DNA of 36,053 bases from a virus. Shown here one piece after another: positions 128 through 36,053 of the stretch. Positions within the stretch are counted from its first letter, which is position 1, and every line of letters starts with the position of its first letter. Below the pieces are notes generated by a model. The model searched no databases. It was given only the letters and a program-made list of their open reading frames with translations, and was not told the origin of the DNA. The stretch spans positions 1-36,053 of IMG/VR virus record IMGVR_UViG_3300037047_000060. One strand, written 5' to 3'. Made by a program: the position numbers and the translations under genes.

Positions 128-1144
128 GACAAATTTATAGACAGGCTTCACGAAGATCTAAAAAACGAAACATATAAACTTTCTGAAAATAGAATTAAAT
201 ATATTAAAGACGGTCCTAGACAAAAAGAAAGAATTATAACTGTACCGGCATTCTATCCAGATCAGGTTATTCACTGGGCATTGACAATACAAATTCAAAA
301 GGTAATGTCAAAGGGAATGTATTACTACAATTGTGGTTCTGTTCCAGGTAAAGGCGCACTATTTGCAAAAAACTATGTCGAAAGAGTTTTAAAAACGAAT
401 CCAAAATATGCTTTAAAAATCGACATTAAGAAATTCTTCCCATCTATTTCAAATGAAAAAATGAAACAACTATTTAGAAGAAAAATCAAAGATGATAAAG
501 TTCTAAGATTAATAGATGCCATCATCGACAACGGTGGGAAAGGATTACCAATTGGTTATTATACGAGCCAGTGGTTCTCAAATTTCTATTTAGAAGAGTT
601 AGATCACTTTATCAAAGAAGTAATCAAAATTCCGTATTATGTCAGATATGTAGATGATATGGTTTTATTTTCAAACAATAAAAGACAACTTCATCAAACA
701 AAAAACATGATCGAAGAGTTTCTGACCGGATATGAATACAGGCTAAAAATAAAAAATAATTGGCAAGTATTTCAAGTTTCCAAAAGGCCTATAGATTTTG
801 TAGAATATCAAATGTCACCAGGATTCACAAAGCTAAGGAAGCATATTTTTATAAGACTAAATAGATGCTCAAATCGATTAAGTAAAAAAATAACATTAAA
901 AAATGCTAGATCACTCGTATCCATGATGGGATGGATGATTCACACAAGCAACGGCAAGCGATATATTGAAAAATATATAGAGCCATTATCAAATACAACA
1001 AACTTAAAAAAATATATTGGGAGGATTCAAAAACATGAAAATAATCGAATCAGTGCAAGGGCAGATCGAACAAGCTCAAATTCTTGTCAAAGCAGAATCA
1101 ACAGTTTTCATCCACAAGAATATCAATCAAATAGAGCCACATGA
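5..1144 (+). CDS. Diversity-generating retroelement (DGR) reverse transcriptase
   Basis: 379-aa ORF with RT motifs: ERIITVPAFYPDQVIHWAL, NCGSVPGKG, the DGR-typical LPIGYYTSQWFSNFYL (I/LGxxxSQ) and the catalytic YVDD (VRYVDDMVLF). It lies about 115 nt downstream of a template repeat. RBS aaggag precedes the ATG in the copy at 35920-35933. Confidence 0.95.
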   Translation: MKRIGYIYEKIYDKENLRTAIYKAAKGKSDKRNIKFILDNIDKFIDRLHEDLKNETYKLSENRIKYIKDGPRQKERIITVPAFYPDQVIHWALTIQIQKVMSKGMYYYNCGSVPGKGALFAKNYVERVLKTNPKYALKIDIKKFFPSISNEKMKQLFRRKIKDDKVLRLIDAIIDNGGKGLPIGYYTSQWFSNFYLEELDHFIKEVIKIPYYVRYVDDMVLFSNNKRQLHQTKNMIEEFLTGYEYRLKIKNNWQVFQVSKRPIDFVEYQMSPGFTKLRKHIFIRLNRCSNRLSKKITLKNARSLVSMMGWMIHTSNGKRYIEKYIEPLSNTTNLKKYIGRIQKHENNRISARADRTSSNSCQSRINSFHPQEYQSNRAT

Positions 1145-1304
1145 AGATGATGATACAATGCTTTTTGAATACTGGGAAGCCCAATTATCATATGAAGAAT
1201 TTGAACACTATAAAAGCATAGCAGAAGATGATGAATATGATGGACCACTATCTGATGATGAAAAGTATATAATTCAAGTGATTAAATCCGAAGAATTGAG
1301 GTAA
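1035..1304 (+). CDS. Hypothetical, strongly acidic small protein
   Basis: ORF with RBS gggagg upstream of the ATG at 1035 (the track start at 1017 is less likely). Rich in D/E, no recognisable motif. Overlaps the 3' end of the RT gene. Confidence 0.6.
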   Translation: MKIIESVQGQIEQAQILVKAESTVFIHKNINQIEPHEDDDTMLFEYWEAQLSYEEFEHYKSIAEDDEYDGPLSDDEKYIIQVIKSEELR

Positions 1305-1582: not shown

Positions 1583-3903
1583 TGTATATCACTTTGTATA
1601 AAAATGATCCAGAAACAATATTCACAGCACCTGCAGCAACGCCTAGTCTATCTAACTATTTGCAAATAGTAGAAGGAAGCAGAGGAAGCTTGTGGCAATG
1701 CACAAGAACAGGAAGCGCAGGAGGATGGATAGAAGTATCAAATCCCGGAGGTGCAGTGATGGAATGTAATACTTGCCCACCTACAGGTGTAGGATCTCCA
1801 GGGCAATATTGCGGGTGCTATTTGGGATACTCAAGATATTATCAATATATACCTGAAACATATGTTTATTCATGGACCAAAGTTCAAGATGGATACCCAG
1901 AGATAATCTTTGGCGGAATCGTAAAAGAAGTAAGAGAAGATATTACTAAAAGAGTCTATGATAAAGATAAATCTACATTTGAAGGACTAGCTGATGAAAC
2001 ATTAGATGAACCACTAATCTTTGTAGTAAAGGAAGATGATGGAACATATGTGTATTCTGGATATGTAAACTCATGGTCACAGGATGCAAAAGTGTGCAGA
2101 TTTAAAGGTCTAGACTTCAAAACAATACTAGACACAGATGTAAGCCTAGACTTTTATGCAGACGTTGCAGAAGTTAACTTACAAGTATCTACCATATTAA
2201 ATAAAGTTTTTGATGCATTTGATAACAATCAACCACCTGTAGTATTTAATGTTCCAAGCATAACTACAGATACAGCATACATCACTAACTTCCTAGGGCA
2301 GGTGTTTACTACGAACGCACTTAAATTTATAAAAGTATATCTAGCAACTGCAGGATTGTTTATGCTTCCATTTTTTAATGAAATATCAAAAGAAATAGAA
2401 ATGGATGTCACATCTACTAATCAAGCAGCGACAATTCATCTTGATGACTTTGTTCATGAAAGTACTAAGACAGATACAAAAACTAACAAGTGCATCGCCA
2501 CAGTATCGCTTCCACAGGACTCAGAAGACACACCTGCAAACATTCAATGGATCAGAAGTTCAAAAGCCTACTATGATAGCTTACCAAGCAATCGTAAAAA
2601 GCAAGGCGAAGGTGTTGTAATTAATGAATCAGAATTCATAAGATTTCCAGGATCAAATTGGGGATACTTTGAATCAGAACCATCATCACCAAATAAATTT
2701 ATCAAATTAACTGTTTATCAATCATATGCAGATTTTAATACAATACTTACTACATGGAGCAAAAAGTTTATACTTCATATTCCATATCATCCAAATTTAG
2801 ATATGGCAGCATCTTTCATGAGAGAAAACGGTAGTGGATCGGCATATTTTAATAACACCAGACAAATGAATACGACAGTTCCAGTGATCGAAATTCATCC
2901 ATATACTGACTTTGGACAAGGATGGTTTATTGTAGAATTAAAAGGAACATACCCATTACCTTATGCTTATTATGAAATATTCTTGAAATTTAAAGGAGTA
3001 ACCAATCCGTCAGTAACATTAGGAACGACATTCAAAAATGAGCTTGCTAACAAAGTAATATTTGCAAAACAAACATCAATCCAAAATGTCAGACCTTATG
3101 AATTCGGGAAAACATATCAGCAGCAACCATGGTATATGTATCCAAAAGAAGTCTTACAATACGATGGCGACTATCCACCATATGGCGATGCTTATAGAAC
3201 ATTTTATTATAGTTACGATCACACATTTACAGCATTAACAGGCACACATACATTGCTAACACTATTAGGTACATGCCCTATAGACACATCGAGAATTAAA
3301 GTGTACTTAGGAGGCGATTTAGTATTTGATGGAGTAAATCAGTATGGAGCGCTAGAGTATGCAGAATTGATAAATTGTAGTATAGGTGTTTATTTCGGAT
3401 TTCAAGGTGGCGAACAGTTTTATTTCTACTTTGATGGAAGCTATGTAAACGACTACTACCCATCATCATTAAGAATTGTAATTGATGAAGTAGAAGTCTA
3501 CTGGCAAGTAGGACAGATACCACGTGAACCAAAACCAGTCCCATCAAGAAATTATTTTCTAGGAAAAGACAATCAGATATATGAGCAATTCATTGCACCT
3601 GCAAATCAAATATTCCCGGTGCAGCAGAAAATCATTGCAGAAGAGTTCTTCTACAAAGCACAATTTAATGCAGTATATGAACTCGTCAATTCAAGGTTTA
3701 ATCAAAACATTATTGTGCTAGACAATAGCAAAGTCAACCCGTTAGAATTATCAAATCTAGGCTTAAACGCTCAGATCACAGTCTATGATAAATTAAACAA
3801 TGTTGCTATACTACCAGTAAGCGAAATTGAAATCAGAAACGGCAAAAAAAGTGTTAAGCTTGGTTTTAAAAAAATATTTCTAACTGAGGTAATTAAGGGA
3901 TAA
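1582..3903 (+). CDS. Large tail-associated structural protein (Tal or receptor-binding type, putative)
   Basis: 773-aa ORF. On the circular map it lies downstream of the tape-measure and distal-tail genes. Function is inferred from size and position only. Confidence 0.45.
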   Translation: MYITLYKNDPETIFTAPAATPSLSNYLQIVEGSRGSLWQCTRTGSAGGWIEVSNPGGAVMECNTCPPTGVGSPGQYCGCYLGYSRYYQYIPETYVYSWTKVQDGYPEIIFGGIVKEVREDITKRVYDKDKSTFEGLADETLDEPLIFVVKEDDGTYVYSGYVNSWSQDAKVCRFKGLDFKTILDTDVSLDFYADVAEVNLQVSTILNKVFDAFDNNQPPVVFNVPSITTDTAYITNFLGQVFTTNALKFIKVYLATAGLFMLPFFNEISKEIEMDVTSTNQAATIHLDDFVHESTKTDTKTNKCIATVSLPQDSEDTPANIQWIRSSKAYYDSLPSNRKKQGEGVVINESEFIRFPGSNWGYFESEPSSPNKFIKLTVYQSYADFNTILTTWSKKFILHIPYHPNLDMAASFMRENGSGSAYFNNTRQMNTTVPVIEIHPYTDFGQGWFIVELKGTYPLPYAYYEIFLKFKGVTNPSVTLGTTFKNELANKVIFAKQTSIQNVRPYEFGKTYQQQPWYMYPKEVLQYDGDYPPYGDAYRTFYYSYDHTFTALTGTHTLLTLLGTCPIDTSRIKVYLGGDLVFDGVNQYGALEYAELINCSIGVYFGFQGGEQFYFYFDGSYVNDYYPSSLRIVIDEVEVYWQVGQIPREPKPVPSRNYFLGKDNQIYEQFIAPANQIFPVQQKIIAEEFFYKAQFNAVYELVNSRFNQNIIVLDNSKVNPLELSNLGLNAQITVYDKLNNVAILPVSEIEIRNGKKSVKLGFKKIFLTEVIKG

Positions 3904-6085: not shown

Positions 6086-6123
6086 GGTGTTAGTAAGGTA
6101 GGGCGTAGCCCATGGAGGAAAAG

Positions 6124-6303
6124 ATGAAATACGGAATGCGACTAAGAGGGTTCAGCATAGGATGCCAACCAATGAATGGATTTATAAGACGACATGATGA
6201 TCCAACGAATAAATATTACGACATCATAGAATATGATAGAAAACTGACTAAGCAAGAAAAAGAAACATATAATCTAGACGAAATAAAGGAGGTAAAAAAA
6301 TAA
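6124..6303 (+). CDS. Hypothetical small protein
   Basis: ORF MKYGMRLRGFSIGCQP.... The ATG at 6124 is 5 nt after ggagg. The ATG at 6112 is an alternative start. Confidence 0.6.
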   Translation: MKYGMRLRGFSIGCQPMNGFIRRHDDPTNKYYDIIEYDRKLTKQEKETYNLDEIKEVKK

Positions 6304-6386: not shown

Positions 6387-6650
6387 ATGACAAAAGCACA
6401 AGTACAAGCAAAAATGGAAATTATACAGGATGAAATATTTAAAATAGAACAGGAATACATCCCAAACTTCGAAGAAAAAAAAGAAAAGATAGAAGAAAAA
6501 GCTGATGAAAGAGAATCAGGCGAAAACACAGAAAAAGAGCAAGAAAAAATAGAAAAAATAGATTTAAAAATTGAGTCACTAGAAGAAGTAAAAGATGCAC
6601 TACAGGAGGCATACGATAAGTATCAAGAACTACTTGATTTATACGAATAA
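6387..6650 (+). CDS. Hypothetical highly charged coiled-coil protein
   Basis: 87-aa ORF rich in E/K, with RBS aggaagg upstream. It is flanked on both sides by the hammerhead-like elements. Confidence 0.65.
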   Translation: MTKAQVQAKMEIIQDEIFKIEQEYIPNFEEKKEKIEEKADERESGENTEKEQEKIEKIDLKIESLEEVKDALQEAYDKYQELLDLYE

Positions 6651-13530: not shown

Positions 13531-13720
13531 AGCATTAACAGCAAAGCCCGGACAAGCTGTAAAAGTTAAAATCAATGGCGAATGGGTAGATGGAATATAT
13601 ATCCAAACAACAATGTTCCACATTAAAGTAGCAGTTTTATATAATGGTGAGATAAGACAAATTAATGCAGAACATCATCAAGTAAGAGATTTTAAATCGA
13701 GAGTGGGTGTACCTAGATGA
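13523..13720 (+). CDS. Hypothetical small protein
   Basis: The ATG at 13523 is 7 nt after ggagga. 65 aa. Confidence 0.55.
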   Translation: MDKALTAKPGQAVKVKINGEWVDGIYIQTTMFHIKVAVLYNGEIRQINAEHHQVRDFKSRVGVPR

Positions 13721-14301
13721 TTGTAGAAACTCCTGCAGGAAAAGGAAGATATGGAATCATATTAATAGATCCACCATGGCAACTGATGAGAGGTGGAAAA
13801 ATGAAAAAAAAGCCGAATTCATCAGGAATGCCAGTTCCATACAAAACAATGGCACTAGAAGAAATCAAATTATATATCCAAAATATAGTCAGTGAATCAC
13901 AAGAAGCAAATCTATTTATATGGTGCATTCAAAAGTACTACATAGAACTTGATAAGATGATGAAAAGCTTAGGCTATAAAAAACACACAGACATCATATG
14001 GTCAAAAGGAAATGGTCCATGTCCTGCATTCACAATGAGAATGACTCATGAGTACCTGCAGTGGTGGTACAAGCCCGGACACATTCTAATGCCAATCAAT
14101 CCAGGACATCATGCAACAGTCATACATGAACCCAACTCAGACCATAGCAAAAAACCAAAAGCAGCATACGAATTGATAGAATCAATGTTCCCAGATGCAA
14201 TGAAATACGAAGTGTTTGCAAGAAAAGAGAGAATCGGATGGGATGCATTCGGTGACGAACTAGGAGGAAGTGGCCATGGGCGATGTGAAGAAACCAAGTA
14301 G
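13717..14301 (+). CDS. MT-A70 family DNA N6-adenine methyltransferase
   Basis: YGIILIDPPWQ (DPPW catalytic motif) plus the C-terminal HSKKPKAAYELIESMFP...ARKERIGWDAFGDE, typical of the MT-A70/Dam-like phage family. Confidence 0.85.
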   Translation: MIVETPAGKGRYGIILIDPPWQLMRGGKMKKKPNSSGMPVPYKTMALEEIKLYIQNIVSESQEANLFIWCIQKYYIELDKMMKSLGYKKHTDIIWSKGNGPCPAFTMRMTHEYLQWWYKPGHILMPINPGHHATVIHEPNSDHSKKPKAAYELIESMFPDAMKYEVFARKERIGWDAFGDELGGSGHGRCEETK

Positions 14302-14671
14302 CGTAAGAAATCGAAAAGGGGAAGTGTGGAAGTTCTTAGGAACAAAGCACCTGATCAGCAATTATGGAAGATGTTACTCACTAACATTTAAAAGAATTAT
14401 AAAGCAATTTAAAAACAACAGTGGGTACTACAGAATCAAAGTAGGAACAAAATGGCACTTCACCCACATCAAAGTCGTAGAACTGTTTGGCGATATCAAC
14501 GGAGTGAATCTAGCACACATAGACACTCTAGTAGGAAATGGACTATCAATCGATCACATCGATAGAAAAAAAAGAAACAACAAACAAAGTAATCTAGAGC
14601 TAGTCACACATCAGGAAAACTGCCAAAGAAAGTTCAAAAAAAACGATAATGATGAGATATCAGATAAATAA
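14270..14671 (+). CDS. HNH homing endonuclease
   Basis: GLSIDHIDRKKRNNKQSNLELVTHQENCQRK is an HNH_3-type motif. Confidence 0.8.
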   Translation: MAMGDVKKPSSVRNRKGEVWKFLGTKHLISNYGRCYSLTFKRIIKQFKNNSGYYRIKVGTKWHFTHIKVVELFGDINGVNLAHIDTLVGNGLSIDHIDRKKRNNKQSNLELVTHQENCQRKFKKNDNDEISDK

Positions 14672-15470
14672 CGAATCAGCACGTGCATGGTGCATCAGAA
14701 ATCAAGTAAGTTATCCAAAAACACTTAAGCTCATCAAATCTGGAATAGAAGAAGAAGAAATAAAAAAGATATTAGGGAAGCGATACGAAGCAAGAACAAT
14801 CGAGCAAGCAACATCCATAGCAGCAAAGAAATGGATGAACGCTAAGACGAGAGAAGATAGAATCGCAATCAGATCATGGTTCACAAAGCAATACGAGGAA
14901 CATCCAAGATACAGCGAAATGTGGGATAAGATAGTCAATGGTCAAGCACAAATTAAATGGCTACCAGTCGAAGGTTATCCCGGATATGAGATTAGCAACA
15001 ACGGAATCTTAAAGAAGTACCTGAAAGATGTATCACTGGTACTCAGACCACATAAAAAAAAGAAATGGAACAAGTCCAGAACAAAATGCAGATATCATTT
15101 ATTCGTAAAAATATACGGACCAGAAGGAATGAAGTATATCAAATTAGCAAAAATAGTAGCAACAGCATTCATCAGACCTACAGATAACTTATATATTCAT
15201 CACATCGATGGGAACTACAGAAACTGCAGAGCTGATAACTTAGAATTGGTAGATAAAAGTAGCCATGGACAACTCACAGGATATCAGAAAGACCAATCTA
15301 AAGTTATACAACAGTTGGATGCTGAAGGAAACATAATCAAAGAGTACAGATCATCAAGAACAGCAGCAAAAGCATTATTCGTAAGTTATCAAACAATCCT
15401 AGACATATGCCATGGCCGAATTAAAAGAGAAGCGATTGTCAATGTCAGATTTAAAAAGGAGGAAAAATAA
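14649..15470 (+). CDS. HNH homing endonuclease with NUMOD-like modules
   Basis: WLPVEGYPGYEISNNGILKK (NUMOD4-like), IHHIDGNYRNCRADNLELV (HNH), and the C-terminal EYRSSRTAAKALFVSYQTILDICHG (NUMOD1/IENR1-like HTH). Confidence 0.8.
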   Translation: MMRYQINNESARAWCIRNQVSYPKTLKLIKSGIEEEEIKKILGKRYEARTIEQATSIAAKKWMNAKTREDRIAIRSWFTKQYEEHPRYSEMWDKIVNGQAQIKWLPVEGYPGYEISNNGILKKYLKDVSLVLRPHKKKKWNKSRTKCRYHLFVKIYGPEGMKYIKLAKIVATAFIRPTDNLYIHHIDGNYRNCRADNLELVDKSSHGQLTGYQKDQSKVIQQLDAEGNIIKEYRSSRTAAKALFVSYQTILDICHGRIKREAIVNVRFKKEEK

Positions 15471-18055: not shown

Positions 18056-19639
18056 ATGGACTTATTCAGCACAATGGTACCTAGCATTAAGTTTTCAAAG
18101 AACAATGAACTAACTATGAATGAAAACTTTGCAGGAATAGGTGCATTTAAAAAAGGGTTCGAAAGAGCAGGCTTCAAGGTAAAAGTTGTTGCAATTAGCG
18201 AAATAGATAAATACTGCATCCAAACATACAATGAGATACATGGACCAGTTAATAACCTAGGCGCTATAGGCTCATTCGATAGGCTTCCTGCAGGAGTTGA
18301 TGTATGCACATGGTCATTCCCATGTCAAGACATTTCAAATGCAGGACATGGCAAAGGAATGGAAGAAGGAACCAGATCCAATTATGGGTTCGTATTCTTA
18401 GAAACATTAAGAAATACACCTATAGAAGAAAGACCAAAAGTACTCATCATGGAAAACGTTGCATTGTTATTCAGCAAAAAGTTTCATAAATATTGGAGTA
18501 GGATACTTACGATATTATCGGAATGCGGATATCAGAACTATCCAGGGAAAATGAATGCCAAAGATTATGGGGTAGCACAAAACAGAGATAGAGTCTTTAT
18601 AGTATCCGTACTAGGCGAATATAGTTACGAATATCCTAAACCATTCAAATTAGAAAAAAAGCTTAAAGACTATTTAGAGCCACAAGTTATTGAAAAGTTT
18701 TATTTAACAGCAGATCAGATACTTTCAATGTTTAAATCTAAATATGAAAGTATGGGTATCAAAAGAGTTAAAGAAGAAGATGCTGAAACAATCAATGCAA
18801 TCACAACGATGCAGGGCGGAAATAGAGAACCTAAAATAATTGAAAACATTAAGAAAGATGAAAGAGAACCAAAGATAGCATACGCAGTCGCAAGTCGTGA
18901 ATTCAGAGAACGTGGTTTTATGGAAATAGCACCCACACTTCTATCAAGAGATTATAAGGATCAAAAAATATTAGAAATACCACAAGATAAAACGATATGC
19001 ATAAACTCAAAGGTGGATGGGAAGCAACCAAGCATTCAAAACAGAGTGTATGATGTCGAAGGACTTTCAACCGCTATAACAACGTCATTCATGACAAATA
19101 GTGCAGAACCACAGTTCGCATATGGACCACAAAAAAGAGAATTCTCAGGTTTTAAAGAAATTGCCCATACATTAAGAGCAACTGACTATAAGCAACCTAA
19201 CGTAGTTTTAATACCTGAGAAGACAAAAAAAGAATATGCAGAAGCAACCGATGGCGATGGAATCTATATCAACAGACCATATCAAAAAAGAGGTACAGTC
19301 CAAAAAGGAAAGATACACACAATAAAAACTTCACCAGATGACATAGGTCTAGTAGAAAACATCCAGACCGAAGTAAAAAAATTAAAGTTAGTCTACGACT
19401 TGGGATTATTTAGAATATACGAAGACGAGGACAAAAAAGCATATCTTATGAATAAAGATGGTCAACTATCAAGAATTAGAAAAGTGACACCACGTGAATC
19501 ATGGAGGCTCATGGACTTTGATGAAGAAGACTTCAATAAAGCAGAAAAACTGAACAGCAACACTCAATTATATAAACAAGCAGGAAATTCAATAGTCGTA
19601 GGAGTTATAGAACAAATAGCAAGAATGATGATGGAGTAA
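18056..19639 (+). CDS. DNA (cytosine-5) methyltransferase with an expanded, internally repeated target-recognition region
   Basis: Motifs: I FAGIGAF, IV SFPCQDIS, VI IMENV, VIII QNRDRVFIV, IX VTPRESWRLMDF, X AGNSIVVGV. About 270 aa lie between motifs VIII and IX. That region holds duplicated segments (AYAVASREFRERGFMEIAPTLLSRDYKDQKILEIP and AYGPQKREFSGFKEIAHTLRATDYKQPNVVLIP) and three xTIxT(S/M) motifs. Confidence 0.9.
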   Translation: MDLFSTMVPSIKFSKNNELTMNENFAGIGAFKKGFERAGFKVKVVAISEIDKYCIQTYNEIHGPVNNLGAIGSFDRLPAGVDVCTWSFPCQDISNAGHGKGMEEGTRSNYGFVFLETLRNTPIEERPKVLIMENVALLFSKKFHKYWSRILTILSECGYQNYPGKMNAKDYGVAQNRDRVFIVSVLGEYSYEYPKPFKLEKKLKDYLEPQVIEKFYLTADQILSMFKSKYESMGIKRVKEEDAETINAITTMQGGNREPKIIENIKKDEREPKIAYAVASREFRERGFMEIAPTLLSRDYKDQKILEIPQDKTICINSKVDGKQPSIQNRVYDVEGLSTAITTSFMTNSAEPQFAYGPQKREFSGFKEIAHTLRATDYKQPNVVLIPEKTKKEYAEATDGDGIYINRPYQKRGTVQKGKIHTIKTSPDDIGLVENIQTEVKKLKLVYDLGLFRIYEDEDKKAYLMNKDGQLSRIRKVTPRESWRLMDFDEEDFNKAEKLNSNTQLYKQAGNSIVVGVIEQIARMMME

Positions 19640-19643
19640 GAAA

Positions 19644-20555
19644 ATGATAATCATAGGCAATGCATTAGAAGAATTGAAAAAGCTTGAAGATGAAAGCATA
19701 GATTGCATCATTACATCACCACCATACTGGTCATTAAGAGATTATTAAACTGCAGGACAAATCGGACTTGAACCTACAATTAAAGAATATATCCAAAATT
19801 TAATAAAAGTTTTTAATGAAGCAAAAAGAGTTTTAAAGAAAGATGGAACCTGTTGGGTTAACATAAGCGATACATACTCAGGCGATAAGACTGGAAAGAC
19901 AGATCAGAAGATGCAATACATACCAAAGCAAAATCTAAAGAAGAGAGTGAGAGAACTCCCAAGAAAATCGCTATGTAACATACCTGCTAGGTTTTCAATA
20001 GCAATGCAGGACGAAGGATGGATACTTAGAAACGAAATTATATGGTACAAACCAAACGCTATGCCATCGAGCGTAAAGGACAGGTTCACAGTAGACTTTG
20101 AAAAGATATACTTCTTCACAAAGAACACAGAGTATTACTTCAACCAACCAAAAGAACCTATGAGAACAAACGATATAAGCCAACCAAGAGGAAGCAAAGG
20201 GGTTCTAGGATCAATGAATGGAGGAAGAAGAAACAAGCAGCAAGAACAACCAAGGCCAACAGAACAGAACCTGATGCGTAACAAACGTACAGTATGGACC
20301 ATAAACACCCAAAGAAGCACGTACGAACACTTTGCAATGTTCCCTAAAGAACTAGTGGAAACCATCATAGAAGCAGGATGTAGACCACAAGGTGTAGTCC
20401 TAGATATGTTCCTAGGCTCAGTTACCACAATCAAGGTGGCAAGCACAATGAATAGAGCATACGTGGGTATTGAAATCAATCCAGAGTATGCTCAGATAGC
20501 AAAGAAAAGAATGGAAAATGTTCAGATCAGTATATTTGGATGGGAAGATGGATAA
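19644..20555 (+). pseudogene. SPPY-type (N4-C / N6-A, beta-class) DNA methyltransferase interrupted by one in-frame TAA (19746-19748)
   Basis: The ATG at 19644 gives MIIIGNALEELKKLEDESIDCIITSPPYWSLRDY, then TAA. The same frame continues open as TAGQIGLEPTIKEY...NEIIWYKPNAMPSSVKDRF...FPKELVE...VLDMFLGSVTT...GIEINPEY to 20555. Motif I is degenerate (GSVTT instead of GSGTT). Confidence 0.8.
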
Positions 20556-20594: not shown

Positions 20595-20897
20595 TTGAAA
20601 ACACCTGACAATGTGATAAAATTCTATCAATCTGAAGCATGGAAACGTGTAAGAAGAATGATAAGAGCTGAACGCATGGGAGTGTGTGAAGAGTGTGGTG
20701 GTGTGGGTACAGAAGTACACCATATCATTCCAATATCAGCGGACAATGTATCAGATCAAACCATAAGCATCAACCCAAAGAACCTGCAACTACTATGCAG
20801 AGAGTGTCACAACTCAAAACGTGCGCGCGAAGTGCAGTTGAGGGATGAATTAATGTTCGATGAGATAGGCAATCTCATAAAGAAACCGAACAGATGA
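20595..20897 (+). CDS. HNH endonuclease (terminase-associated type)
   Basis: FYQSEAWKRVRRMIRAERMGVCEECGGVGTEVHHIIPIS...NLQLLCRECHNSKR. The start appears to be TTG. Confidence 0.8.
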   Translation: MKTPDNVIKFYQSEAWKRVRRMIRAERMGVCEECGGVGTEVHHIIPISADNVSDQTISINPKNLQLLCRECHNSKRAREVQLRDELMFDEIGNLIKKPNR

Positions 20898-22292: not shown

Positions 22293-22454
22293 ATGAAACC
22301 AAAGAAACAAACAAATCCAAAAAGAATTGTAGTCATTGACGATGCAGGAAATGGCGATGCAACATGCACTGTTGTAGCAAAAGTCAAAGATGGAGTTGTA
22401 ACGATTATTAGCGAAAAACTTGAAAAGAGTAGAAAAGGAGTTCAAAACCGATGA
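22293..22454 (+). CDS. Hypothetical small protein (53 aa, below the ORF-track cut-off)
   Basis: The ATG at 22293 follows gggagga. It fills the gap between the ParB-MTase and metK, and its stop overlaps the metK start (ATGA). Confidence 0.5.
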   Translation: MKPKKQTNPKRIVVIDDAGNGDATCTVVAKVKDGVVTIISEKLEKSRKGVQNR

Positions 22455-23527
22455 GATTATTCAGCACTGAACAAGTATCAAAGTATCACCCAGACAAATA
22501 TGCAGATCAGATAAGCGATGCAATCCTTGATGCAGCACTTAAGAAAAACAAAAATGCCAGAGTCGCTGCAGAAACACTTGTCAAAGATAAGATTGTTATT
22601 GTCGCAGGGGAAACAAGCGAAGAATTCTCCAGGGAAGAGATTGAAGCAATCGTTAAAAACATAGCATTCAAACTTAGATATGAAGTAGAAACAGTCATCA
22701 ATCTTCTTGGAAAACAGTCACAACAAATAAATCATGCAGTTGATGGCAATGATGCGGATGATCCTGCAGCAGGCGACCAAGGCATCATGTTTGGATATGC
22801 AACAAGCGAAACATCAAGTTATCTTCCATTCGGATTCCATATTGCAAATCACATCATCAAACACATTGAACATTACGCTGACGAAGGAAGAATATTCAAA
22901 GGCGATGCAAAAGTTCAAGTTACAGTAGACTTAGATAAATATACTAGAGAATCAATTCATACAATTTTAGTCAGCGCATGTCATTATGAAGACATTGATG
23001 AAAAAACTGTGAAGAAAACGATTCAGGACATCATTGTCAATTCATTAAGATTTAACGAATGTAAAAATATTGATGAAGTGATAATCATAGCAAATCCATC
23101 AGGCGTGTGGACCATAGGCGGACCAGTAGCAGACTCAGGACTCACAGGAAGAAAGATAGTCTGCGACCAATATGGCGGATACGTTCAAGTGGGTGGTGGC
23201 GCATTCTCTGGAAAAGATCCAAGCAAGGTAGACAGAAGCGGTTCCTATGCAGCAAGAGAAATTGCAGTAAGAGCAATCGATAAATTTAAGAAATACGGAC
23301 TAGCAGACGTTCAAATTCAAGTAGCCTATGGAATAGGTATCAAAGAACCATTAAGCGTCAACGTCATTCTTAATGGAAGTTTAACTGCCGATGATAGAAA
23401 AGAAATTCATGAATATATCAATCGAATTGAATTAACTCCAGGATCGATAATCAAACGTCTAGGACTCAAAGATTTAAAATACAGTGAAATAGCAGGCGGA
23501 TGCCACTACTATGGCAAACACTGGTAG
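22451..23527 (+). CDS. metK: S-adenosylmethionine synthetase (MetK homologue, phage-encoded)
   Basis: HPDKYADQISDAILDA, AAGDQGIMFGYA, GGPVADSGLTGRKIV and GGGAFSGKDPSKVDRSGSYAAR match the MetK signature blocks. 358 aa. Confidence 0.9.
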   Translation: MRLFSTEQVSKYHPDKYADQISDAILDAALKKNKNARVAAETLVKDKIVIVAGETSEEFSREEIEAIVKNIAFKLRYEVETVINLLGKQSQQINHAVDGNDADDPAAGDQGIMFGYATSETSSYLPFGFHIANHIIKHIEHYADEGRIFKGDAKVQVTVDLDKYTRESIHTILVSACHYEDIDEKTVKKTIQDIIVNSLRFNECKNIDEVIIIANPSGVWTIGGPVADSGLTGRKIVCDQYGGYVQVGGGAFSGKDPSKVDRSGSYAAREIAVRAIDKFKKYGLADVQIQVAYGIGIKEPLSVNVILNGSLTADDRKEIHEYINRIELTPGSIIKRLGLKDLKYSEIAGGCHYYGKHW

Positions 23528-29911: not shown

Positions 29912-30251
29912 TTCATTATGGAATCTTCTAAAAGATACTAATTCCGCTCCAGTCTACATGGAAAAAATGGATGAAGAAGAATCTAAAATACCTGCTAAAT
30001 TTGTAATCTTTGAACGCTCAACGACAGATCAATCAGCCGAATCAGGCGATGGCATCGAAATTCTTAGAGAAAAGTATTTCACAATCAGTATTTATGCTAA
30101 AAAAATCAACGATGCAGTCACAATCATGAATGCATACAGGGATAAACTTATTCAAAATGGTATCCGTTTTACACAACAAGGACCTATATATGATACAACC
30201 AGTCAACGATACACTGTAGACTTGGATGGAAGATACTCATATGGCGTATAG
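29886..30251 (+). CDS. Hypothetical neck/tail completion protein
   Basis: 121-aa ORF in the connector gene block. Confidence 0.45.
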   Translation: MKMLSKDYDSLWNLLKDTNSAPVYMEKMDEEESKIPAKFVIFERSTTDQSAESGDGIEILREKYFTISIYAKKINDAVTIMNAYRDKLIQNGIRFTQQGPIYDTTSQRYTVDLDGRYSYGV

Positions 30252-30636
30252 CGAATTTGAGAAACAGATGCAAAACATCATTAAAAGTGTAACAGCTGAT
30301 ACCAAAAAAAATGTAGAAAAAGGACTCGATGAAGCATCAAAAATTATGAAAGAAGATTTAGATGCACATAGTCCACAAAGTACCAATCCAGGGGAAAAAC
30401 TAAAAGGATCCTGGATGATTAAAAATAAGTACACCGGGGTTCGCTATGTGGGTTCTACCAAATTGGTACCCACAACAAGAAATGGGCGAAAAACGACAGT
30501 GCCACTTACAATTGTATTAGAACATGGCGCTAAAAGTCCACACCGGGGTTTTATGCGTAGAAGATTTCAAGCCCAAAAAGCAAATATTATCCTAGCAGTA
30601 AAGAAAGCTATTGAAGGAGGAAACAATAATGGCTAA
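30226..30636 (+). CDS. HK97 gp10-family tail/neck protein
   Basis: ...TIVLEHGAKSPHRGFMRRRFQAQK resembles the HK97 gp10 family. The ATG at 30241 is an alternative start. Confidence 0.6.
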   Translation: MEDTHMAYSEFEKQMQNIIKSVTADTKKNVEKGLDEASKIMKEDLDAHSPQSTNPGEKLKGSWMIKNKYTGVRYVGSTKLVPTTRNGRKTTVPLTIVLEHGAKSPHRGFMRRRFQAQKANIILAVKKAIEGGNNNG

Positions 30637-31234
30637 AACTAAAGAAGTACAATTTAACGTGAAGAATGTTAAATATTGTTTAGCATCAACACCACTTGTT
30701 ATCAATGACGTGGCGTATGCTAGTCAAATCAGTTTTGAAGCAGCAATCAACAAACTCCCTATCTACGGTGACGGTCAGAAACTGACTGAAATCTTCGCAG
30801 ATCAAGGGTTCACTGGAGCATTGACTCTCATTCAAGTACCAGAAGACTTCCTTAAGGACTTAGGTTACAAACAAGAAGTCGATGGCACTGGTATCGCAGA
30901 TATCTCTGTTTCGAAGTCCGTAGAAGTTCATCTCTACTATGAGATTGAAGTTCATGAAAATGACGTTACCAAAACAGTCAAGTTCTGGTGCTACAATGTC
31001 ATTCTTGAAAGACCTGCTGAAAGTTATCAACAAACCACAGAAACACCAAATCTTACTACCTATGAGTTGCCATTTACAATCTTAGGTATTAACTTGTTGA
31101 ATACTGCAGGCACTGGTGACTACACCGATACAAACGGTAACACAGTCAAAGTATGGCGCCAAAGAAAACGCCCTGCAGACACTGATTACGCTACGTTCGG
31201 CACATTCACCGCACCTAAAGTAAAAGCAGCGTAA
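30629..31234 (+). CDS. Major tail protein
   Basis: The ATG at 30629 follows aaggagg. About 200 aa, directly upstream of the chaperone pair and the tape measure. Confidence 0.7.
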   Translation: MAKTKEVQFNVKNVKYCLASTPLVINDVAYASQISFEAAINKLPIYGDGQKLTEIFADQGFTGALTLIQVPEDFLKDLGYKQEVDGTGIADISVSKSVEVHLYYEIEVHENDVTKTVKFWCYNVILERPAESYQQTTETPNLTTYELPFTILGINLLNTAGTGDYTDTNGNTVKVWRQRKRPADTDYATFGTFTAPKVKAA

Positions 31235-31245
31235 GAGGCTAATTT

Positions 31246-31638
31246 ATGGCGGTATCTATTAAAATTCCTTTGGTTGAAATGGCAAAAAATCAAGCTACAG
31301 GTAAGCTTGAATACCAAAGAAGAGAAATCCTTGTACGAGTAAACACTTCGGTGTTGGCTAACTACAAATGGGAAAGAACATTCCAAGCAGAGAAAGACTA
31401 TGACCTAGTCCATGCTGTAGGACTTACCCAGATCAACCTTAAGAACCTGCAGAAGAACCCTATGATAGGCACAACTCTTATTGAGAGCCTTCGAGTGGTT
31501 TACTGCTTTATTGAAAGCCCGGAACTTCCAACCTTTGTAGATTTCCTAAACGGAGTCAGCGAAGAGAATCTTAGCGATGTAATTGATAAGATTACTGCTA
31601 TCATTGAAGAAGTTAATTCCGTATCAGGAAAAAACTAA
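31246..31638 (+). CDS. Tail assembly chaperone (G-like)
   Basis: Position before the tape measure. Ends at the slippery site A_AAA_AAC followed by TAA. Confidence 0.8.
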   Translation: MAVSIKIPLVEMAKNQATGKLEYQRREILVRVNTSVLANYKWERTFQAEKDYDLVHAVGLTQINLKNLQKNPMIGTTLIESLRVVYCFIESPELPTFVDFLNGVSEENLSDVIDKITAIIEEVNSVSGKN

Positions 31639-31937
31639 AAGCTCGATCACAATATCTGCAAGCGCTTATTGACCGATACGGCAAAGGCAATGGCAAAGAG
31701 CCAACAGTGATCGAGCCATCACCCATATTGGCTCGCATTCAATCAGCATTGGATGCAAAGCTTCCATATGACCTAATCACAAGCATTTCATACCATGACA
31801 TGTATGCGATGCTTGTTGAAATATGGATCACAAATTTTCAACACTATGGTAAACGCATGGAAGAAGAAAGACTGGGAAGTCGTAACGTTGAAAGACGACA
31901 AGCATCCAATTCAGATTACTTAGAACTACTCAAATAA
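31246..31937 (+). CDS. Tail assembly chaperone frameshift fusion (GT-like; 31246-31635 joined in the -1 frame to 31635-31937)
   Basis: The -1 frame is open from the heptamer into track ORF 31707-31937. This is the canonical arrangement upstream of a tape-measure gene. Confidence 0.75.
31629..31635 (+). promoter_or_regulatory. -1 programmed ribosomal frameshift heptamer A_AAA_AAC
   Basis: The zero frame reads GGA AAA AAC TAA. The -1 frame reads on as LKARSQYLQALIDRYGKGNGKEPTVIEPSPILARIQ..., open through to 31937. Confidence 0.8.
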
Positions 31938-31950
31938 AGGGAGTGATTTC

Positions 31951-34089
31951 ATGGCAGCCGAAACAGCAAAAGGTGTAATAATCACCATAGGAGCGGACAC
32001 TAAACAATTCGAAAAAGGTTTAAAAACAATGGACCGTGAAATCAAAAACACGTCCAAGCAAACCGCTGCACTTGTAGAATCACTCAAAATCAAGTGGGAT
32101 GATAAAACCTTTATTGAAGCCCAAAAGTCCGCACAAAAAGCACTTGACGATACCAACTCGAAAGCTAAATCATTGCGCGATCAGATGAAGTATCTTGAAG
32201 AAAGCGGAGGTTCTGTAGACAGCGAAGGATATCGCAAACTACAGACTCAACTAACCCTGACTGAAACAAGTGCTATTAAACTAAAGAAAGAACTCCAGGA
32301 TCTTCAAAACATAAAGTTTGAGAATCTAGCAAACAAATTTAATACTGCAGGATCCGCTATAACAAAGGTAGGACGGTCGCTTGCTGTATTCTCAGCAGCG
32401 GCTGTCGGTGCCTTAGTGGGTACTACAGCACTCTTCAACAGCACTGTGAAACTAGCAGCAGAAATAGACGATATGAGTCAAGCTGTCAACCTGAGCGCAG
32501 AACAGTTCCAGAGATGGCGCTATATTGCAAATCAAGTGGGTGTTGATAATACGACACTACAGACAGCCCTTGCTAAGACACAGGGTTCTTTTGCTAATCT
32601 TGCACAAGGTGTATCGAATACTGGCTCCAAGGCGTTAGAACGTCTTGGTTTTAGTGCATCCGATGCAGCTAAAGGCATGGGAGCGAACTTCGAAGCGATG
32701 ATCCAAAGATTAAGTGGCATCTCAGATGCATCAGAACAAGCGTATCTGGCAAACGAAATCTTTGGCGAACGTTTAGGATCCAAAGTTATCCCATTATTAA
32801 ACAGCGGCGCGGAAGGCATAGCACAACTCACCAAAGAGTTTGAATCACTAGGATACATGACAGATAGTCAAGTCGCAAGCCTAGCAGCATATGACGACCA
32901 ATGGCTAGCGATTAAAACATCATTCAAAAGCATTAAGAATGACATCAGCGTATCCTTGCTACCACTATTCCAAGCACTGACAAACATCATCCAAGAGAAA
33001 ATAGTTCCTGCAGTCCGTTCCATGGCCGAATGGTTTGCAGATTTATCAGATAAAACAAAAACAAACATCGCCATCATGCTGACAGTAGTTGCAGCACTGG
33101 CTCCAGTGATTCTAATCATAGGAAAGCTCACATCAGTTATGGGAAGCTTAATAGGCGGTATAGGCGGTCTTTCTAAAGCATTGACATTCCTAATGGCACA
33201 TCCTATCATCGCAGCAATAGCAGCCATCGTAGGCATCATGGTACTACTTTATACAACTAATGAGAAAGTAAGAGAATCAATAAATAACATAGTATCTACA
33301 ATAGGAACTGCACTGGCTCCAATTATGCAAATGCTAGGTGAATTATTCAATCAAGTACTTCAAGCAGTAATGCCTTTGGTAACTATGATAGGCGATTTAC
33401 TTGTTCCAATTTTAGATATGATAGGACCATTATTAACACCACTTATTGACTTATTAAAAGCAGCATTAGTTCCAGTCATGGCGATACTATCAAACAATAT
33501 TAAAGTCTTCATGGCAATACTAACACCAGTGATTAAATTACTGCAAATGGTCCTGGTACCAGTTATGGCTATAATTCAAAAAAGCATAGGATTTATAACG
33601 CAATTGATGCAACCACTTAAAAATGCACTTATGGGATTAGCTCCAGTGTTTAACTTTATTTTTAATCTATTTCAAAAAGGTTTAGAACTTGTAGAAAAGG
33701 GTATTCAATTTGTGCTCAAAGGCATAGAAAACGTCATTAATAGCGGAATAGATATGATAAATCATTTGATCAGAGCAATAAACAGTCTTGGTAAATGGTT
33801 AGGTATATCATTAGAAGAACTTAATCACATCCGCATTAATATTGAGTCAGGAACAACATCACAGCCATCACCCACACCACAACAAGTTGAAACTCCTGCA
33901 GGAACAGCACAGACCGCATTAGATGGCGCATATGGACAAGGTATCAGCAACAGCTACAATACCACTACCACGAACGACTACAGCAACAAAGAAGTCAATA
34001 TCAACGTGACAGTCCAGAACTATGCGGAACAAGTCGATGTGGATGATATGGTAAGACAAATCAATATCAAGCTAGCGGAGGCAATGTAA
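31951..34089 (+). CDS. Tape measure protein
   Basis: 712 aa with an N-terminal coiled coil, a long hydrophobic and repetitive central region, and a canonical position. Confidence 0.85.
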   Translation: MAAETAKGVIITIGADTKQFEKGLKTMDREIKNTSKQTAALVESLKIKWDDKTFIEAQKSAQKALDDTNSKAKSLRDQMKYLEESGGSVDSEGYRKLQTQLTLTETSAIKLKKELQDLQNIKFENLANKFNTAGSAITKVGRSLAVFSAAAVGALVGTTALFNSTVKLAAEIDDMSQAVNLSAEQFQRWRYIANQVGVDNTTLQTALAKTQGSFANLAQGVSNTGSKALERLGFSASDAAKGMGANFEAMIQRLSGISDASEQAYLANEIFGERLGSKVIPLLNSGAEGIAQLTKEFESLGYMTDSQVASLAAYDDQWLAIKTSFKSIKNDISVSLLPLFQALTNIIQEKIVPAVRSMAEWFADLSDKTKTNIAIMLTVVAALAPVILIIGKLTSVMGSLIGGIGGLSKALTFLMAHPIIAAIAAIVGIMVLLYTTNEKVRESINNIVSTIGTALAPIMQMLGELFNQVLQAVMPLVTMIGDLLVPILDMIGPLLTPLIDLLKAALVPVMAILSNNIKVFMAILTPVIKLLQMVLVPVMAIIQKSIGFITQLMQPLKNALMGLAPVFNFIFNLFQKGLELVEKGIQFVLKGIENVINSGIDMINHLIRAINSLGKWLGISLEELNHIRINIESGTTSQPSPTPQQVETPAGTAQTALDGAYGQGISNSYNTTTTNDYSNKEVNINVTVQNYAEQVDVDDMVRQINIKLAEAM

Positions 34090-35648
34090 TGATAAGAAAA
34101 TTTAAACTATGGAATTATCAAATGACAAGTTCATATGATATTTCATTAAATTCGATAAAGGTAACTGATGTAAAAGGACTAGGATCAAATATCAATCATC
34201 AAGTTTATGATGACAAGTATAAAAAAACAATTTTAAAGAGTGATATTAAGTTTTCGGATATTGAATTAACAATCATATTTGGGCTAAAAAACGACGCCTA
34301 TGCGGATTTTATGAACTTCATGCAGTTCTTAGCAACTAATGGCAAAAAACCTTTCACGCTTGAATATACGCATAATTCAGCTACAAGATATGTTGATGTT
34401 ATGCCGAAGAATATGCCAAAGTCTCAAAAATCACAATTTAGGATATTAACTGAAAATTTTACATTTGAAAGATTAACACCATATTATGAACTTATCGAAG
34501 AAAATGATGTAACATCTGTGGTTATAGAAAATGACTACATCGAAGATATTAAACCTATCATCAAAATTAAAGGTACGTCATCAGCATCAACTATTCTAAA
34601 GTTTAATAGTCATTCATCCGATGAAAATATAATTTTGGGTATCACAGGCCTTCCAAAAGACAATACATTGTTAACAAGGTTATATAGTTCAAATGGTTTG
34701 GGTTATCGAATCATCGATGCTGGCGATTATACATACGTACAATCTGATTTTGATAATTTGTACCCATACTCAGAGATGAAAGAAGTTGTTGATGAATTTG
34801 GGAATGTATTCATCAAAATTCCCAAGTTCTATATGTTTAATAGTGGAAATGAAAGAGCAATTTCTAAGCATAAGATTGATGATAACTGGTTCTTACCACC
34901 GGTATTCTATGGTCCAGATGGAGAACTTGATTACTTCTTGTATGGAAAATATCCTGCATTTACAGTAGGAACCAAATTAACAAGTAATACCGGGGTACTT
35001 CCTACCGTATCACAAAACATTACTACGTTTAGAACAAGAGCTAAAGCAAACGGTCTTGGCTATCAACAGCTAGATATCTGGGCAATCAATGTAATTCAAA
35101 CATTATTTTTAGTAGAGTTTGCTACTTCGAATTCACAAAACTTATTTAGAGGAAGAGTAGATCATACAGAAAGAGTAGTAACTGGAGCAACTGATTATAT
35201 TAAACAACCAAGCGGTGTCCATAAAGCAACCAATCAATTTAAGTATAGAGGAATTGAAGATGTATTCGGACACATATGGCAGTTTATAGATGGTATTAAC
35301 TTTGATGAAGAAAACATCATGATTTGTTATGATCCTGAAAAGTATATCAGTACATCCATAACTGCAGATTATGAGCTATTTGGCCAAAGACCTATGGCGA
35401 ACGGTTATGTTAAAGAAGAAACATTTAACATAGATCATAAAGGATTTCAATTTCCAAGTGTTTTAGGTGCATCAACATCCACATATTATGCGGATTATTA
35501 CTATCAAGCGACAGGATTAAGAATTGCATTATTCGGCGGTAGCTGGAGCAGTGGCTCGTATGCGGGTCTCTGGTATTGGTATTCTGACAATGCTGCTTCG
35601 AGCACGAGCTCGAGCGTCGGCGGTCGCCTTCTTAAAAAACCCTTGTAG
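34089..35648 (+). CDS. DGR target protein: a tail protein with a Dit-like N-terminal half and a C-terminal FGE-sulfatase/C-type-lectin-fold domain carrying the variable repeat
   Basis: The C-terminal YRGIEDVFGHIWQFIDG ... FGGSWSSGSYAGLWYWYSDNAASSTSSSVGGRLL is the typical CLec/FGE-type DGR scaffold. The last 35 codons or so are the VR. The start overlaps the tape-measure stop. Confidence 0.9.
   Translation: MIRKFKLWNYQMTSSYDISLNSIKVTDVKGLGSNINHQVYDDKYKKTILKSDIKFSDIELTIIFGLKNDAYADFMNFMQFLATNGKKPFTLEYTHNSATRYVDVMPKNMPKSQKSQFRILTENFTFERLTPYYELIEENDVTSVVIENDYIEDIKPIIKIKGTSSASTILKFNSHSSDENIILGITGLPKDNTLLTRLYSSNGLGYRIIDAGDYTYVQSDFDNLYPYSEMKEVVDEFGNVFIKIPKFYMFNSGNERAISKHKIDDNWFLPPVFYGPDGELDYFLYGKYPAFTVGTKLTSNTGVLPTVSQNITTFRTRAKANGLGYQQLDIWAINVIQTLFLVEFATSNSQNLFRGRVDHTERVVTGATDYIKQPSGVHKATNQFKYRGIEDVFGHIWQFIDGINFDEENIMICYDPEKYISTSITADYELFGQRPMANGYVKEETFNIDHKGFQFPSVLGASTSTYYADYYYQATGLRIALFGGSWSSGSYAGLWYWYSDNAASSTSSSVGGRLLKKPL
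35532..35633 (+). repeat. DGR variable repeat (VR)
   Basis: Aligns without gaps to 35715-35816 (offset 183). The 13 mismatches all fall where the TR has A. There are 0 mismatches at TR C, G or T. Confidence 0.95.
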
Positions 35649-35654
35649 GGGGTT

Positions 35655-35673
35655 GTAAGGGGTCTCCCCTTAC
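35655..35673 (+). promoter_or_regulatory. GC-rich hairpin downstream of the VR (candidate DGR target-recognition cruciform)
   Basis: gtaagggg-tct-ccccttac: a perfect 8-bp stem with a 3-nt loop, 22 nt after the VR/TR homology ends. Confidence 0.6.
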
Positions 35674-35681
35674 TAAACTAC

Positions 35682-35709
35682 TTAATTGTTTTTAATAACC
35701 GGGTATAAT
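35682..35709 (+). promoter_or_regulatory. Candidate promoter for the TR-RT transcript
   Basis: TATAAT at 35704-35709, about 6 nt before the TR begins. A weak -35-like TTAATT sits at 35682-35687 with a 16-nt spacer. Confidence 0.45.
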
Positions 35710-35714
35710 ATGCG

Positions 35715-35816
35715 ATCGGCGGTAACTGGAACAATGGCTCGAATGCGGGTCTCTGGTATTGGAATTCTAACAATGCTGCTTCGAACACGAACTCGAACAT
35801 CGGCGGTCGCAATCTT
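35715..35816 (+). repeat. DGR template repeat (TR)
   Basis: The invariant donor copy adjacent to the RT. It contains 26 adenines, including 6 AAC and 5 AAT codons in the VR reading frame. 13 of the 26 adenines are substituted in the VR. Confidence 0.95.
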
Positions 35817-35930
35817 TTACAAGTTAATACTTTATGCATATTATATCCATAGCCCTAGCTAAAAAACACTCATAAGGGATTGGTCTAGTAAGTCATTGAA
35901 AAACCAATAAGAGTAAAAGAAGGAGTATCC

Positions 35931-36053
35931 ATGAAAAGAATAGGGTACATATACGAAAAGATTTATGATAAAGAAAATTTAAGAACTGCAATTTATAAAG
36001 CAGCCAAAGGCAAATCAGATAAGAGGAATATTAAGTTTATTTTAGATAATATT
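35931..36053 (+). CDS. 5' part of the DGR RT gene (duplicate of 5-127 caused by the terminal overlap)
   Basis: Identical to the start of the window. RBS aaggag at 35920-35925. Confidence 0.9.
   Translation, partial: MKRIGYIYEKIYDKENLRTAIYKAAKGKSDKRNIKFILDNI

Follow-up and report, generated by a model that had tools for sequence, protein, structure and literature searches.

A compact retroelement in a complete circular phage genome

The window analyzed here, 36,053 nt of DNA, is the whole of virus record IMGVR_UViG_3300037047_000060 from IMG/VR, and our subject is the diversity-generating retroelement (DGR) that it carries. The first 127 nt of the window recur identically at 35927-36053, and because of this direct terminal overlap we consider it a complete, circular genome of 35,926 bp, so that no phage gene is out of view. 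The G+C content is 35.7%, and the gene-like open reading frames (ORFs), as well as every ORF with a family match, lie on the plus strand. This phage of about 35.9 kb probably belongs to hosts of the Clostridia. A nucleotide search of phage genomes with positions 30000-36053 of the window gave no matches.

The elements of the DGR follow one another in the order target gene, variable repeat (VR), 8-bp hairpin, TATAAT box, template repeat (TR), structured RNA of the RT-18 type and reverse transcriptase (RT) gene (Table 1). From the VR through the RT stop codon the cassette occupies about 1.6 kb, and it spans the circular junction, the RT start codon at 35931 being equivalent to window position 5. 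Directly upstream of the target gene lies a 712-aa ORF (31951-34089) that is presumed from its position to be the tape-measure gene. As the TR-RT unit lies between the target, which is a Dit_N protein gene, and the gene of a 773-aa protein, it is located inside the tail module. The target stop codon is separated by 66 nt from position 35715, and position 35816 by 114 nt from the RT start codon. Upon rechecking these gaps, the target stop, the two repeats and the RT start, we found all coordinates of the first-pass annotation, which had been made by a model from the letters alone, to be correct.

Table 1. Positions of the DGR components, of the small ORFs after the RT and of MSL genes in related loci (pI, isoelectric point; IMH, initiation of mutagenic homing).
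Feature	Position	Strand	Description
DGR target gene, 519 aa	34089..35648	+	Stop TAG 35646-35648; N-terminal Dit_N, C-terminal receptor-binding-type domain containing the VR
VR	35533..35633	+	3′-terminal ~33 codons of the target; pairs with the TR without gaps, offset 183
VR 3′ end, IMH-like	35617..35633	+	GC block TCGGCGGTCGC (35617-35627), then CTTCTT
Perfect hairpin, 8-bp stem, 3-nt loop	35655..35673		GTAAGGGG (35655-35662), TCT, CCCCTTAC (35666-35673); 21 nt past the VR end
TATAAT, -10-like box	35704..35709	+	6 nt 5′ of the first base of TR homology; putative promoter of a TR-spacer-RT transcript
TR	35716..35816	+	101-nt ungapped pair with the VR; position 35715 is an A/T boundary position
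TR counterpart, IMH*-like	35800-35816	+	TCGGCGGTCGC, then AATCTT
Rfam RT-18 RNA (RF03021)	35850..35922	+	54.7 bits (gathering threshold 41.3); model positions 1-84, full length
DGR RT, 379 aa	5..1144	+	ATG also at 35931 in the terminal overlap; Pfam RVT_1, 3e-14
Small acidic ORF, 89 aa, pI 4.3	1035..1304	+	Overlaps the last 110 nt of the RT ORF in another reading frame
Small ORF, 90 aa	1310..1582	+	Its stop codon and the start of the following gene (773-aa protein) overlap
MSL genes of relatives	L006 3929-4327, L008 8587-9003, L010 7460-7858, L014 7368-7751	-	Convergent with the lysis genes

For comparison we collected relatives of the RT from IMG/VR (L004-L009), from curated phages (LBR48, Arawn and Perkons, 35-40% identity) and from Clostridia metagenome-assembled genomes, and further related prophage loci (L010-L021) were found through a search with the acidic ORF. 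In all relatives with upstream sequence, VR and TR are 183-273 nt apart and directly 5′ of the RT, which indicates that the compact layout without avd is a property of the clade.

VR diversity is confined to sites opposite TR adenines

The target protein matches the distal tail protein family Dit_N of Pfam over residues 2-127 (1.6e-14) and PHROG 5302, annotated as "tail protein", over residues 238-518 (6.9e-54). Its VR region shows the sequence pattern GGxWxxG...AG...GxR and aligns weakly with TaqVP, a DGR variable protein from Thermus (5VF4, E 0.038); both may hint at the C-type-lectin (or Ig) fold in which the VRs of DGRs lie. DGR-clade RTs were recognized by an IGxxxSQ motif together with YxDD and by their adjacency to a TR; in the window, the intact RT ORF has PIGYYTSQ and YVDD, and the closest solved structure by sequence match is that of the BPP-1 enzyme bRT (8UB7, E 2e-23).

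All 12 mismatches between VR and TR fall at TR adenines (P ~5e-8, given 25% A in the TR). There are 25 such adenines, 13 in the first, 12 in the second and none in the third codon position, and 11 codons are of the form AAY, the placement that is used as a DGR criterion since it makes mutagenesis non-synonymous and avoids stop codons. We dismissed basic ORFs that run over the TR (for example 35686-35862, pI 11) as artefacts of its reading frame.

Two independent metagenomic variants of the window phage (L004 and L024) and a fourth assembly (L025) allowed us to compare natural copies of the element. The TRs of all three are identical to that of the window, while the VR differs from the window at 13 sites in L004 and at 11 sites in L024, every one of them opposite a TR adenine. 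RT identity among the three contemporary variants (the window, L004 and L024) is 98.9%, and over the 282 nt from target stop to RT start a single base differs between the window and L004. Because the TR is constant and the VRs vary at TR-adenine sites only, these comparisons point to ongoing mutagenic retrohoming, and the DGR is apparently active in nature. The L025 assembly has a run of Ns inside the VR (6498-6539) and another inside the RT; VR heterogeneity might have broken this assembly.

The last VR/TR mismatch pair, AA in the TR (35811-35812) and CT in the VR (35628-35629), follows the GC block at the end of both repeats, and the first-pass annotation had taken it for a possible boundary between IMH and IMH* rather than the result of mutagenesis. 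Our comparisons favor that proposal: three natural variants of the VR all have the CT, although 11-13 adenine sites elsewhere differ between them, a non-adenine mismatch occupies this position in L005, and in more distant relatives both repeats read CTT. On these grounds, the terminal mismatch appears to behave as an IMH/IMH* difference and not as a product of mutagenesis.

Accessory genes were not detected in the window

Both intergenic gaps of the cassette are so short that they leave no room for an accessory gene of the avd or HRDC type, as had been noted in the first-pass annotation. Its further statement that none of the ORFs resembles Avd also stood, as Pfam profiles for Avd (PF22296, PF05635), HRDC and MutS_I had no match among 60 ORFs (50 on the plus and 10 on the minus strand), while BPP-1 Avd, used as positive control, was detected by Pfam (PF22296) at 7e-36. 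For 10 ORFs, an NCBIfam scan gave no Avd, HRDC or MutS_I and a PHROGs scan no Avd, and a phmmer search of the translated window (six frames) with BPP-1 Avd as query found nothing. An Avd or HRDC homologue elsewhere in the genome had been named beforehand as the finding that would speak against an Avd-independent element, and the profile searches revealed none. Thus, the target-TR-RT order is seen in the sequence, and Avd, HRDC and MutS_I are undetected by profiles.

One type of accessory gene came to light in the relatives. In the Clostridia prophage loci L006-L008 and L010-L021, a gene for a MutS_I protein of 127-133 aa (MSL, the MutS-like accessory that marks Architecture D of Wu et al., 2018) lies on the opposite strand after the endolysin gene (Table 1); in L014-L021 it adjoins an HTH_26 gene. 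A hidden Markov model built from the relatives' MSL proteins scored 1e-26 to 1e-76 in L006-L008 and L010-L017 and, run on the window in all six frames, had no match (best E 0.4), which makes the window phage more minimal than its MSL-bearing relatives.

A structured RNA occupies the spacer between TR and RT

The spacer contains a full-length match to the Rfam RT-18 RNA that ends at the RT ribosome-binding site. RT-18 occurs at the same position in 11/13 related loci, and its predicted pairs show compensatory changes in 11/13 among the relatives. Weinberg et al. (2017) placed the RT-10 motif between the TR and RT of BPP-1, and a DGR role for the other RT motifs was speculation only; RT-18, an orphan Rfam motif, is tied here to a bona fide DGR.

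The sequence CTTTTAC in the 3′ flank of the TR (35814-35820) is the exact complement of GTAAAAG just 5′ of the RT ribosome-binding site (35913-35919), and in relatives CTTATTTT pairs with AAAATAAG at the same two places. This potential pairing of the TR 3′ flank with the RT-18 tail is found at a consistent place across loci, and its duplex energies are no better than those of shuffled controls (z 0 to -2.2). From its position, it could be a duplex of the template:primer type.

A hairpin and a -10-like box lie between target and TR

As a perfect 8-bp stem with a loop of 3-5 nt, the hairpin past the target stop is unique in the genome. The first-pass annotation had likened it to the cruciform required for target recognition in BPP-1, and this agrees with the DGR hairpin/cruciform described by Guo et al. 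(2011; PMC3240598), which has a GC-rich stem of 7-10 bp, lies 4-34 bp from the VR and has a 4-nt loop with GRNA consensus. Stem and position are as in that consensus, whereas the loops are of 3-5 nt (TCT, 3 nt, in the window) and not the 4-nt GRNA. Most relatives have a GC-rich hairpin of 7-11 bp after the target stop, with a stem sequence different from that of the window; in Perkons (L003) and L028, long AT-rich inverted repeats are found in its place. We therefore regard 35655-35673 as a candidate target-recognition hairpin or cruciform. Its alternative role as an intrinsic terminator was rejected, as no T-run follows it, no terminators were called in 33000-36053, and the sequence 3′ of the hairpin is A-rich in relatives of the Clostridia group.

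Other inverted repeats were also seen in this region. A second, weaker hairpin (35638-35654, AACCCTT GTA GGGGGTT, with two G-T pairs) lies over the target stop, 5′ of the main one, and at the equivalent place L005 has a perfect 8-bp hairpin, CTAAGAAG ... CTTCTTAG. The inverted repeat of L028 (1475-1525), a more distant relative, is 16 bp long, and the RT of that locus is followed by an acidic ORF of 82 aa (P0128).

The TATAAT box that abuts the TR is where the first-pass annotation had placed it. There are 11 copies of TATAAT on the plus strand genome-wide, so that the chance of finding one in the gap is about 2%. The surrounding sequence GGGTATAAT is kept in L005, whose RT is 61% identical, T(T/A)GTATAAT lies 5′ of the TR in L008, L010, L014, L019 and L021, and other relatives have a -10-like box. 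In the Clostridia prophage group (L007, L008, L010 at ~3680-3745, L014, L019 and L021), a conserved leader of ~60 nt starting with AAGGGATTTGRTGTGT separates the -10 box from the TR; it is absent in the window and in L005, where box and TR are almost contiguous.

Promoter-like sites in the region are as frequent as in shuffled sequence (14 found, 13.9 expected). One of them, at 35816-35844 directly after the TR (TTTACA, 17 nt, TATTAT; 10/12 matches), would drive RT-18 and RT without the TR. This second site is probably due to chance, because its spacing is not kept in L005 or L007.

Small ORFs after the RT

As the first-pass annotation had stated, ORF 1035-1304 is very acidic and does not resemble Avd. 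Its AlphaFold model has 4 strands and 2 helices (predicted local distance difference test score, pLDDT, 70), a Foldseek search of the model against PDB gave no match at E <= 0.001, and as an Avd-like protein it was therefore ruled out. It has no Pfam match. The ORF has a ribosome-binding site, GGGAGG at 1019, within the RT coding sequence. An acidic ORF lies over the RT 3′ end in 9/9 first-round relatives, and every relative examined, across different phage backgrounds, has one that overlaps or abuts the RT 3′ end, with sizes of 82-175 aa in most loci and 449 aa in Perkons and pI values of 4.2-5.3.

An exhaustive HMMER search with ORF 1035-1304 returned six clusters only, while a profile of the relatives' acidic ORFs recovered 221 proteins, most of which have at their C-terminus the domain PF16778, known from tail-fibre assembly chaperones and missing from the window ORF. 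The link between the two groups is P0129, in which a window-type N-terminus (E 6e-13) is followed by the larger family's C-terminal module (E 5e-11); through it, ORF 1035-1304 is related to family members over the N-terminal ~60 residues only, and direct comparison with the larger family by hhalign is marginal (P 0.003). In its own locus (L026), P0129 lies 18 nt 3′ of a CLec tail gene with no RT in between. Since P0129 directly follows a tail gene in this way and family members end in PF16778, we assign the acidic ORF to the target protein: it most probably encodes a chaperone-like partner of the target or tail protein, with TR and RT sitting between the two genes.

ORF 1310-1582 had no family matches in Pfam or in the NCBIfam and PHROG scans, and its homologues are limited to near-identical phages and L005. 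Its AlphaFold model is mostly beta and of low confidence (pLDDT 55). These results led us to reject it as a part of the DGR and agree with the earlier view that it is not a helical bundle.

Comparison with known DGRs

The DGR of BPP-1 (mtd-avd-TR-brt) resembles that of the window in the adenine-specific transfer from TR to VR into the C-terminus of a tail receptor-binding protein, in an RT of the same clade, in the GC-rich block at the VR 3′ end and in the 8-bp hairpin downstream. In BPP-1, however, avd is placed between target and TR, and 20 nt of the DGR RNA come from it, whereas the window is without avd. The spacer RNA is RT-18 in the window and RT-10 in BPP-1, the target is of the Dit type and not the tip protein of a tail fibre, the hairpin loop has 3 nt (TCT) in place of the 4-nt GRNA consensus, and the TR transcript of the window would have almost no 5′ leader.

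Closer in architecture are the DGRs that lack avd. In the survey of Wu et al. (2018; PMC5758913), avd was present in 74% of 372 DGRs, Architecture A (TR-RT without accessory gene) accounted for 75/372, Lineage 3 lacked avd, and a search for avd elsewhere in genomes with Avd-less DGRs found none. DGRs of Architecture A1/Lineage 3 share with the window the order target-VR(IMH)-TR(IMH*)-RT on one strand, a tail-protein target and the lack of avd in cassette and genome. A phage example, crAssphage LMMB (PMC7290462), has the order TG-VR-TR-RT without avd and was published as lineage 3. Its RT is only 32.5% identical to that of the window (tblastn), and the likeness drawn here is one of gene layout; its host lineage is Bacteroides, whereas that of the window is Clostridia-like.

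By RT, the closest cultured or curated phages are Lactobacillus phage LBR48 (40%) and Butyrivibrio phages Arawn and Idris (35%). Like the window, Arawn has a target, a gap with the TR (~375 nt in Arawn), an RT and an overlapping acidic ORF; LBR48 shares the RT with overlapping acidic ORF and RT-18, and the 3′ end of a CLec gene lies upstream. These three phages show no nucleotide similarity to the window. Their DGR is flanked by the last tail gene on one side and the lysis genes on the other, and not by Dit and the next tail gene. In Arawn and in the Clostridia prophages, TR-RT follows the last tail-fibre gene, whereas in the window it is inside the tail module. The Clostridia prophage DGRs (L006-L008, L010-L021) otherwise share the RT-18 spacer, the GC-rich hairpin past the target stop, the -10 box 5′ of the TR and the acidic ORF after the RT, with RTs 49-52% identical to that of the window (L006-L008). 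They differ from it by MSL, by the ~60-nt leader (AAGGGATTTGRTGTGT...) and by an acidic ORF that is longer and often ends in PF16778.

Interpretation and alternatives

We consider it likely that the window carries a functional DGR composed of target-VR, TR and RT, without accessory gene, and that a Dit-like tail protein is diversified by it in the C-terminal domain, which is of the receptor-binding type. In such an element, a transcript would start from the TATAAT box abutting the TR and extend over TR, RT-18 and the RT gene. The RT would bind the RT-18-containing RNA in cis, in a role equal to that of the Sp RNA for BPP-1 bRT-Avd, and would make adenine-mutagenised cDNA. With help from the hairpin 3′ of the VR, this cDNA would then take the place of the VR as far as the GC block TCGGCGGTCGC. 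No phage-encoded accessory protein would be involved, and host functions would complete integration.

Several points weigh against this interpretation. The BPP-1 RT, bRT, is inactive without Avd (bioRxiv 10.1101/2023.10.23.563531), and our literature search found no experiment on any Avd-less DGR in the searchable literature. Avd sequences are very poorly conserved (Wu et al., 2018), so a divergent Avd could escape profiles, and a divergent helical-bundle protein may be present among the ~25 unannotated small ORFs, two ORFs having been structure-modelled. As the relatives with 49-52% identical RTs carry MSL, RTs of this clade may as a rule work with an accessory factor, which in the window phage would be supplied by the host. 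Concerning the transcript, the -35 is weak, so that a consensus promoter scan called no promoter at TATAAT 35704, and transcription reading through from the tail operon may take the place of a start at this box.

The lack of an accessory gene, taken together with the dependence of bRT on Avd, could also mean that the cassette is an inactive relic whose VR/TR differences are historical. We find this very improbable, given the intact RT ORF with its catalytic motifs and, above all, three contemporary variants that have an identical TR and nearly identical RTs and differ in the VR by 11-13 changes, exclusively at adenine sites; the break of the L025 assembly into Ns inside the VR is also what a heterogeneous population might cause. 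If the element is active, an Avd-, MSL- or MutS-like function might be provided in trans by the host chromosome or by a co-resident prophage. The Clostridia prophage relatives carry MSL within a few kb of the RT, on the opposite strand, related DGRs are found in Clostridia metagenome-assembled genomes, and the window phage lacks MSL and yet is apparently active. Nevertheless, we regard provision in trans as unlikely, because the search by Wu et al. (2018) of genomes with Avd-less DGRs turned up no avd elsewhere and because dependence on a host accessory would narrow the host range, while a DGR exists to change it.

A further alternative is that the phage itself encodes an accessory protein that has gone unrecognised, for which ORF 1035-1304 would be the candidate. 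This ORF is translationally coupled to the RT, has a good ribosome-binding site, and its counterparts keep their place at the RT 3′ end in every relative examined; it would be comparable to CH1 of Avd-less Bacteroides DGRs, an acidic accessory protein that Wu et al. (2018) found to be confined to Avd-less DGRs. Against such a role, the ORF has no nucleic-acid-binding features and its fold is not Avd-like, P0129 follows its CLec tail gene without an RT, and the longer members of the family end in PF16778, which occurs in phages beyond this DGR clade as well. The homology to that larger family is, on the other hand, marginal. It is simpler to view the acidic ORF as a target partner, the TR-RT unit having been inserted between both genes, and we thus hold an accessory function of this ORF to be rather improbable.

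With respect to the preferred reading, a functional DGR without accessory gene, the idea of an Avd-independent phage DGR put forward in the first-pass annotation is supported. No Avd, HRDC or MSL was detected, but such an element is not new, as the class has already been published, both as Architecture A/Lineage 3 (PMC5758913) and in crAssphage LMMB (PMC7290462); the window is a clean further example of this documented class and not a new kind. What is added here is a phage DGR that is complete, variable and free of accessory genes, the identification of its spacer RNA as RT-18, and the difference between it and the relatives that bear MSL. The mechanistic question is nonetheless a real one, because the BPP-1 RT is inactive without Avd.

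One tentative answer is that DGRs of the RT-18 type are two-component systems of RT and structured RNA, in which cis-primed, adenine-mutagenic cDNA would be made without a cofactor, RT-18 would serve as scaffold instead of Avd, and CTTTTAC/GTAAAAG could be the template:primer duplex. If this were true, the window, as a complete and MSL-free phage, would be a minimal natural example. About 1/4 of DGRs are without Avd, while mechanistic and structural work has all been done on the Avd-dependent BPP-1 element. The window offers a clean test case, with a complete 35.9-kb genome, a cassette of ~1.6 kb, evidence of natural activity, a defined RT-18 and close relatives that differ in MSL. It may be of use as a minimal model or for the engineering of compact mutagenesis tools; the known kinds of DGR are unchanged by it.

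Other genes of the phage

Outside the DGR, the window encodes a full-length S-adenosylmethionine synthetase, MetK (22451-23527), that matches 3/3 Pfam domains (1e-22 to 1e-37), three DNA methyltransferases (MT-A70, C-5 cytosine and N6/N4) and a DarA_C-like anti-restriction protein (13717-14301, 18056-19639, 19911-20555 and 6112-6303). The combination of methyltransferases, DarA_C-like protein and MetK suggests a large investment against restriction. There are also homing-endonuclease-like genes of the HNH_3/NUMOD4 type, an adjacent pair at 14270-14671 and 14649-15470, and a separate HNH gene (20595-20897) is located 5′ of the terminase small subunit gene.

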